A DNA stretch of 64,000 bases from the NCBI RefSeq assembly GCF_963921235.1, contig NC_086107.1, positions 113,772,001-113,836,000 of the forward strand. Reading direction: 5' to 3'. A program made the translations under genes and the position numbers. Below, in pieces: positions 48-315 of this stretch. Within the stretch, counting starts at the first letter, position 1; each line of letters starts with the position of its first letter. A model generated the notes under the pieces. It made no database searches and was not told where the DNA came from. It saw only the letters and a program-made list of their open reading frames with translations. Source of the DNA: Mobula hypostoma (Eukaryota).

Positions 48-226
48 TGCTGCACCGTGTGCCTGGACCTGCCCAAGGCCTCCGCCTAAGGAAGGGCCGA
101 GCTCGAAGAAGCAGCCGCGGCTGGAGGCCGACACGGCCTCAGGCTCGAGTTCGGCGGGGGTGGCGGCGGGCGGTGCCAAGGCGGCCAGCAAGAACAAACT
201 GGAGGAGAGGCTGTACTCGGTGCTGT
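48..226 (+). pseudogene. ZFTRAF1: Rearranged fragment of ZFTRAF1/CYHR1 coding sequence (retro-captured)
   Basis: 48-83 reads [12 protein letters not shown]. In another frame, 85-225 reads [47 protein letters not shown]. Vertebrate ZFTRAF1/CYHR1 contains the contiguous [25 protein letters not shown] (recalled). The segment is GC/CpG-rich relative to its flanks. Confidence 0.8.
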
Positions 227-315
227 CGCAAGATCGAAGAAGATGGAGGTGCATAGCCACCAACCCCAGAATCAGGACGGCACCCGCTGACTGACTGACT
301 GACTGACTGACTGAC
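226..315 (+). mobile_element. 3' end of an RTE-like LINE with (CTGA)n tail
   Basis: Reads [19 protein letters not shown], resembling the RTE ORF C-terminal A.DR..WR motif. It is followed directly by a (CTGA)n tail at about 287-315. Confidence 0.6.

Follow-up and report, generated by a model that had tools for sequence, protein, structure and literature searches.

The window analysed here, a stretch of 64,000 nucleotides of Mobula hypostoma DNA, opens inside one copy of a non-autonomous retrotransposon family with a unit of ~580 nt in a genome of 3.5 Gb, and this copy is flanked by a target-site duplication (TSD). Window positions 1–314 are the 3′ part of a 494-nt, 5′-truncated copy whose first base, position 1321 of the locus L001, is 180 nt upstream of the window; at its 5′ end this copy is ~100 nt shorter than the longest copies. 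The features at the locus, with the evidence for each (identities refer to the family consensus or to the window copy itself), are as follows.

Window 1–48, + strand: end of the part derived from a LINE 5′ region (copy boundaries; alignment of consensus 81–303 to the LINE 5′UTR and ORF start).
Window 49–88, + strand: block B, bases 1784–1823 of ZFTRAF1 exon 1 (39/40 in the consensus and 39/40 in the window copy; translation).
Window 89–226, + strand: block A, bases 1646–1783 of ZFTRAF1 exon 1 (136/138, ungapped, in the consensus and 132/138 in the window copy; translation).
Window 227–286, + strand: last 60 nt of an RTE-like LINE (end of the ORF), joined to block A in the same reading frame.
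Window 287–314, + strand: (CTGA)7 microsatellite tail, common to the LINE (TRF reports 287–315, 7.2 copies).
Window 315–322, no strand assigned: TSD CATACTTT, with its partner at L001 1313–1320, 181–188 nt upstream of the window.

The upstream partner CATACTTT, for which an earlier, sequence-only reading of this DNA had proposed a search, abuts the 5′ end of the copy as read from the sequence. The exact common word is 10 nt long when one base of the element at each end is included and 8 nt without these. That reading had also recognized two blocks of ZFTRAF1/CYHR1, at 48–84 and 85–226; the two blocks are present, but their limits are 49–88 and 89–226, so that the B/A joint lies 4 nt further to the right. 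In translation, block B encodes 12 residues in the frame of ZFTRAF1 (frame 3 of the window, 48–86), and the block A peptide, in frame 1 (window 88–294), runs into SQDRRRWRC... and on to the stop codon of the open frame, which is at 292–294 within the (CTGA)n tail.

A coding exon with a CARD domain (PF00619, E 1.7e-7) lies on the + strand at L001:234–446, 1054–1266 nt upstream of the window start. The element copy is ~870 nt downstream of this exon in the same orientation and presumably occupies the following intron of a CARD-containing gene. Further into the window, positions 30001–34000 are AT-rich (G+C 0.32–0.37 vs. ~0.47 elsewhere) with a positive AT skew, and positions 42050–42982 hold a C-rich minisatellite of ~930 bp with a 29-nt unit, ACCCCTCACCCTCTACCCCTCACCCATT, in 32 copies with 83% matches, which accounts for the strong negative GC skew at 40–44 kb.

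The host origin of the two blocks was established through the protein. A search with the block A peptide returned two skate ZFTRAF1 proteins (E 2.9e-3 and 1.1e-2), the best ZFTRAF1 matches being those of skates, and in the skate proteins the residues of A precede those of B. With a skate protein as query, the species' own ZFTRAF1 gene was found on contig C5 with four coding exons. In exon 1 the two blocks form one continuous coding stretch, and the exon ends at CAG/GTACAG, 4 nt after B; A and B are therefore not separated by a splice junction in the gene. In gene coordinates, which are reverse-complement coordinates of L023, consensus 344–481 corresponds to 1646–1783 (block A, E 5e-67) and consensus 304–343 to 1784–1823 (block B, E 6e-15). 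These matches bear out the earlier assignment of both blocks to ZFTRAF1 and of the parental order as A followed by B.

The arrangement in the element is an exact circular permutation of a 178-nt gene segment. The segment is cut between 1783 and 1784 and the order of its parts is swapped, with bases 139–178 followed by bases 1–138. B and A abut in the element, whereas in the gene A lies immediately upstream of B, and the ungapped matches meet at gene 1783/1784. Zero bases are lost, duplicated, or added, in agreement with the earlier claim that nothing is lost or duplicated at the break. The segment has 71% G+C and contains 20 CpG dinucleotides. A 26-mer across the colinear A/B boundary has one occurrence in the genome, namely the gene. 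The Gly/Ser-rich stretch in the A block of the element is the version found in the species' own gene, 7 residues shorter than that of the skate protein, which argues that the capture happened in this lineage. A protein search of the species' own genome with ZFTRAF1 gave 104 matches, which comprise the 4 exons of the gene and 100 copies of the element. Family copies will thus generate false ZFTRAF1-like matches, by which homology-based annotation of ZFTRAF1 will be contaminated.

The sequence downstream of block A comes from a LINE. A genome search for the tail preceded by non-A sequence found 277 further places, of the form AAAAGAG/CGCAAGATCG..., and all 20 of those inspected are 3′ ends of a single LINE with the same (CTGA)n tail, most of them 5′-truncated. 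The earlier identification of an RTE-like end with a (CTGA)n tail is thereby supported, window 227–286 being the last 60 nt of this LINE. Two long copies have 3.2 kb in common, and the full LINE appears to be ~3.2–3.4 kb long. One frame of it encodes an Exo_endo_phos domain (E 2.4e-7) followed by an RVT_1 domain (E 2.2e-21), and its stop codon falls within the first CTGA units. Homologues are endonuclease plus reverse transcriptase proteins of ~1000 amino acids on contigs of 3.2–3.7 kb, and those that carry a name are called "craniofacial development protein 2(-like)", which we take to be a name typical of BovB/RTE-derived ORFs. A single frame with endonuclease preceding reverse transcriptase, a length of ~3.2 kb, and a short tandem-repeat tail are all features of RTE elements that this LINE has. 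From its architecture and the names of its homologues we class it as RTE-like.

The sequence upstream of block B, which the sequence-only reading had missed, is the 5′ end and 5′UTR of the same LINE. Consensus 482–556 is identical to the LINE 3′ end at 72–73 of 75 positions in the two long copies, and consensus 81–303 aligns to the LINE 5′UTR and to ~15 codons at the start of the putative ORF, with 84–89% identity to two single LINE copies. A block still further 5′ matches the start of the LINE in at least 4 of 14 aligned LINE 5′ regions (L080, L084, L089, and L090). Relative to the LINE 5′ region, the element lacks stretches of ~100, 7, and 10 nt; the 7-nt gap may have been inherited from a source subfamily because the LINE copy L083 has the same gap. 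The GC-rich 5′ spacer had been considered as a candidate derivative of exon 1 or of the LINE interior; its local alignment scores to these were within the range of shuffled sequences, and that origin is superseded since the spacer is in part the LINE's own 5′ start.

At the 5′ tip of the longest copies, a segment of the LINE 5′UTR is present in inverted orientation (26–27 of 29 bases; L016:1228–1256 and the same place elsewhere), and the same segment occurs in direct orientation ~90 nt downstream of the tip. The inverted tip, which in a full-length unit would be ~280 nt upstream of the window, is predicted to form a terminal hairpin of ~25 bp with a loop of ~58 nt, and it looks like a scar of snap-back or twin priming in the founder.

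The element is thus made up of ~300 nt of LINE 5′ sequence, the 178-nt exon 1 segment of ZFTRAF1, the final 60 nt of the LINE, and (CTGA)n. Since B is itself preceded by the 5′ region of the LINE, the whole unit reads as an internally deleted LINE with host filler. The ~2.9-kb LINE interior is replaced by the 178-nt exon 1 segment. On this sequence comparison, we describe the family as a "bipartite" non-autonomous RTE-type element whose interior has been replaced by a permuted fragment of a host exon. An older fragment of a LINE 5′UTR at L009:1157–1292, 79% identical, breaks off into unrelated sequence and points to earlier activity of related LINE subfamilies.

ARAGORN found 0 tRNA genes in the element, and no tRNA-, 5S-, 7SL-, or snRNA-derived head was found, Rfam searches at E up to 10 giving only sub-threshold chance matches. 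The same Rfam searches gave no self-cleaving ribozyme in the element. A C/D-box-like match, sR32 at window 30–61, was rejected as chance (16.9 bits vs. a cut-off of 40 bits). No promoter was identified. With a head unlike those of tRNA, 5S, or 7SL type, the element is not a SINE in the strict sense, which has a pol III head. Searches for proteins resembling the open frame of the element gave none among predicted proteins of 53–170 amino acids. The element seems to encode no enzyme and would be copied in trans by the endonuclease and reverse transcriptase of the LINE, which would recognize the common 3′ end and prime on the microsatellite tail; the common ends, the TSDs, and the 5′ truncations point to mobilization of this kind.

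A DNA search of the genome with window 1–330 yielded 1265 candidates at first look, of which 40 were scored; all of these have 90–95% identity and match from query base 1 or 2, which implies that the unit reaches upstream of the window, and locus comparison gives a unit length of ~550–580 nt. With up to 2 mismatches allowed, 24-mers across the junctions occur 702 times (B/A), 724 times (A/LINE-3′), and 731 times (LINE-5′/B) in the genome, and reversed-pattern controls occur 0 times. A majority consensus was built from the 16 full-length copies among the 28 then in hand. The 48 sampled copies comprise 28 whose 5′ ends fall no more than 8 nt from the start of the consensus and 20 with 5′ truncations. 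A TSD word of at least 8 nt is present in 22 of 46 copies vs. 1.3% of 2070 mismatched flank pairs. The 28 copies closest to the window copy diverge from their consensus by 2.9% at non-CpG and 15.2% at CpG sites, and 20 copies from the list of exact junctions by 3.5% and 20.2%, respectively; both samples are mildly biased toward well-kept copies. In 26 of 47 sampled copies the B/A joint has exactly the letters of the consensus, the remaining variants listed being single-base changes, and the three internal joints are the same in every copy examined. The permutation therefore arose once, in the founder, before amplification. We hold both the identity of the element and its descent from a single founding event to be highly probable.

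The sequence-only reading had taken the permutation for a single young event at this locus, and the retention of 16 of the 20 segment CpGs by the window copy agrees with a recent capture. The copy counts refute that interpretation. The B-A-RTE junction, which it had proposed to count, is present in hundreds of genomic copies, and the window copy is an ordinary 5′-truncated daughter with a TSD of 8–10 bp that has diverged from the consensus by 4.2% at non-CpG sites and 14.5% at CpG sites. A unique capture, an artefact of assembly, and a chance resemblance are all opposed by the more than 700 dispersed copies in which the three joints recur and by the TSDs, and chance also by the E values of the exon 1 matches. 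We regard all three of these explanations as extremely improbable.

The consensus contains an open frame of 93 codons (268–549) that runs from the putative ATG of the LINE to the LINE stop; 24 of 47 sampled copies keep it uninterrupted. In the window copy, in which the ATG is lost, it corresponds to window 1–294 in frame 1. Block B is out of the gene frame and block A is in the gene frame, and the joint of A to the LINE preserves both reading frames. Rates of non-CpG substitution at the three codon positions are 0.030, 0.022, and 0.034, position 2 being slightly low. The frame may be a product of chance in GC-rich sequence or may reflect translation required of source elements.

All three joints are blunt and without microhomology, and the CCGCC microhomology that had been proposed at 84/85 is absent. 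At the LINE-5′/B joint, the LINE reads ...GGGC/CCCTTG and the element ...GGGC/GCTGCA. At the B/A joint, the gene reads ...GTCTA/CCAG and ...CTGG/AGGAAG and the element ...CCTA/AGGAAG. At the A/LINE-3′ joint, the gene reads ...GCTGT/GCTGC, the LINE ...AAGAG/CGCAAG, and the element ...GCTGT/CGCAAG. The gene has CC after B (1823) and GG before A (1646), which are not the GT/AG signals of splicing. B ends 4 nt from the natural donor of exon 1, A starts just after AG, and the observed joint lacks only two Cs relative to what a true back-splice from that donor would give. The joint predicted for splicing, from the natural donor to the AG before A, has 0 genomic matches at up to 2 mismatches, and the reading of the B/A joint as a back-splice was rejected for this reason.

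Precursors and intermediates were sought in the same genome. Exact searches gave 0 genomic matches for the LINE 5′ motif followed after 0–30 nt by the LINE 3′ motif and 0 for a form that keeps the LINE's 10 nt before B. Searches for multi-turn or colinear retrocopies of the segment matched only the gene, and no tandem arrangement of the element was found. Taken together, the absence of such forms suggests an origin in one step, with the qualification that two of these searches covered exact matches only. We propose that the founder was produced by one chimeric reverse transcription by the LINE enzyme, which would leave the LINE RNA 60 nt above the tail, travel exactly once round a closed path over the exon 1 segment, and finally return to the LINE 5′ region.

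The nature of the closed path can be read in two principal ways. It is possible that the template was a covalent 178-nt circle of exon 1, either a circRNA or microDNA, or such a circle cut once at 1783/1784. The permutation is exact, the outer joints are blunt, and there are no extra bases, as a circle would give; a circle cut once would have its 3′ end at 1783 and its 5′ end at 1784, and run-off copying of it would yield exactly one unit. Two jumps suffice in this case. The closeness of the end of B to the natural donor and of the start of A to an AG, with only CC separating the joint from a back-splice, also suits a circle, as do the base composition and CpG content of the segment, and circRNA retrocopies with non-colinear joints are documented (PMC4897178). 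Weighing against a circle, the B/A joint has no GT/AG flanks, the two Cs that a back-splice would have left are kept by no copy, the ribozyme search was negative, and, with no microhomology available, it is awkward to see how the enzyme would have entered a closed circle, unless the circle had been cut.

The founder could instead have arisen without any circle, by jumps on linear ZFTRAF1 mRNA or pre-mRNA, and we entertain this account in an equally tentative manner. The enzyme would have moved onto base 1783, copied to 1646, jumped to 1823, stopped at 1784, and then passed to the LINE 5′ region. The second landing could have been on the same molecule or on the sister fragment of a cleavage at 1783/1784, and the stop at 1784 could reflect a template end or a stretch already paired with the enzyme's own cDNA. 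The other irregularities of the founder (the deletions of ~100, 7, and 10 nt and the inverted 29-nt segment) point to copying that was prone to jumps. Blunt joints fit end-to-end template jumping, from which they are known through work on R2. The path nevertheless requires three jumps, together with a second landing on the same molecule or the choice of a sister fragment, and its backward jump has no microhomology to guide it. A stem pairing 1646 with 1823, which would have brought the two positions together, is absent from the predicted fold of the 271-nt exon 1 region (z −2.5 overall). Chimeric retrocopies formed by double template jumps are known (PMC2104539), and Dong et al. name structured linear RNA as an alternative to circles (PMC4897178). 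The data fit a circle-derived template, the inference of the sequence-only reading, and jumps on linear RNA, which that reading had named as the alternative, about equally; we lean slightly to the circle on the grounds that two jumps then suffice where linear RNA would require three, and that the exact unit length follows at no further cost.

A rearrangement at the DNA level, in which a break or deletion in a genomic LINE or bipartite copy was repaired with exon 1 filler in two pieces, seems unlikely to us. End joining is compatible with blunt joints free of microhomology, and the insert sits where the LINE interior is missing. However, repair would not usually be expected to supply two filler pieces that are exact neighbors in the donor without losing or adding a base; replication-based template switching usually leaves microhomology, of which there is none here; and no insert-free precursor was found with the exact motifs searched.

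Bov-A, WALLSI3, and RTESINE2 are described by Kojima (2018, PMC5786205) as bipartite non-autonomous LINEs of the RTE clade from which the ORF is absent. The family resembles them in having an RTE-type LINE 5′ part and the extreme 3′ end with a microsatellite tail, in having no RNA-gene head, in being multi-copy, and in its apparent mobilization by the parent LINE. Its 5′ part comes from the LINE 5′ end and 5′UTR and its 3′ part is the extreme 3′ end of the LINE, as in a bipartite element, but it does not consist of two LINE ends only, since 178 nt of ZFTRAF1 lie between them. Unlike Bov-A, WALLSI3, and RTESINE2, it carries a circularly permuted fragment of a host coding exon between the LINE parts and a 93-codon open frame that leads from the putative LINE start through the host piece to the LINE stop.

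Pseudogenes derived from circRNAs offer a second comparison, the example being circRFWD2 in mouse, with 33 such copies (Dong et al. 2016, PMC4897178). The family is like these in that a non-colinear joint of one host gene is found in many copies, all with the one joint. In contrast, the circRFWD2-type joint is a canonical exon-exon back-splice, whereas that of the family lies inside one exon, does not coincide with a back-splice site, and has no splice signals. The fragment is also only 178 nt long, and its copy number is explained by the LINE-derived vehicle in which it is carried.

Capture of a first exon by a non-autonomous family is known from SVA_F1, with MAST2 exon 1 in 84 copies, and from chimpanzee pt_SVA_D6, with STK40 exon 1 in 94 copies, and promoter activity is proven for the piece captured by SVA_F1 (Damert 2018, PMC6139936). 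There, as here, a non-autonomous non-LTR family took up part of a GC-rich host first exon and amplified it. The exons of these SVA families are spliced-in, 5′-terminal, and colinear and end at the 3′ end of the exon, whereas the piece described here is internal and permuted, stops 4 nt short of the exon end, and has LINE sequence on both flanks. The colinear donor-to-acceptor structure of SVA_F1-type exon trapping is thus not seen in the family.

Chimeras between U6 and L1 are retrocopies formed by template jumping. A tripartite chimera of Magnaporthe is likewise reported as a template-jump retrocopy (PMC2104539). As in such chimeras, pieces of cDNA from different RNAs are fused directly, with the LINE 3′ end on the 3′ side; template-jump chimeras are, however, mostly single insertions with colinear pieces, and here the product is a successful family with swapped exon neighbors. 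Retrozymes, which are described as small retroelements with ribozyme-bearing circRNAs (PMC7229834), share with the proposed circle a size of a few hundred nucleotides and a link to animal non-LTR retrotransposition; the family differs in that no hammerhead or other ribozyme and no tandem arrangement was found in it.

In open-access text, no report linking CYHR1 with SINEs or retrotransposons was found, and the papers found there that combine circular permutation with retrotransposons concern ribozyme circles. Each ingredient is known, namely bipartite RTE derivatives, capture of a first exon followed by amplification, template-jump chimeras, and circRNA retrocopies. Their combination, in which a successful LINE-derived family has at its core a host fragment that is both permuted and intra-exonic, was not found in the open-access text searched.

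According to PMC5786205, many SINE bodies may have been built from bipartite RTE derivatives. The family described here shows that such a vehicle can take in a fragment of a host coding exon and carry it to hundreds of loci, so that part of a conserved gene, CpG-rich and partly in frame, is scattered with every copy. As a footprint of an RTE-type reverse transcriptase moving between templates, the exact circular permutation is both rare and clean. To our knowledge, there is very little biochemistry for reverse transcriptases of this type. How, and whether, circles are retrotransposed was left as an open question by Dong et al. (PMC4897178), and the footprint provides a concrete and testable case for it. 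It is conceivable, although we stop short of calling it probable, that a small non-spliceosomal circRNA or microDNA circle, copied exactly once round, became the core of a family of more than 700 copies. If so, the family would preserve in the genome a dated trace of how a small circle not made by back-splicing entered a vertebrate retrotransposition pathway.
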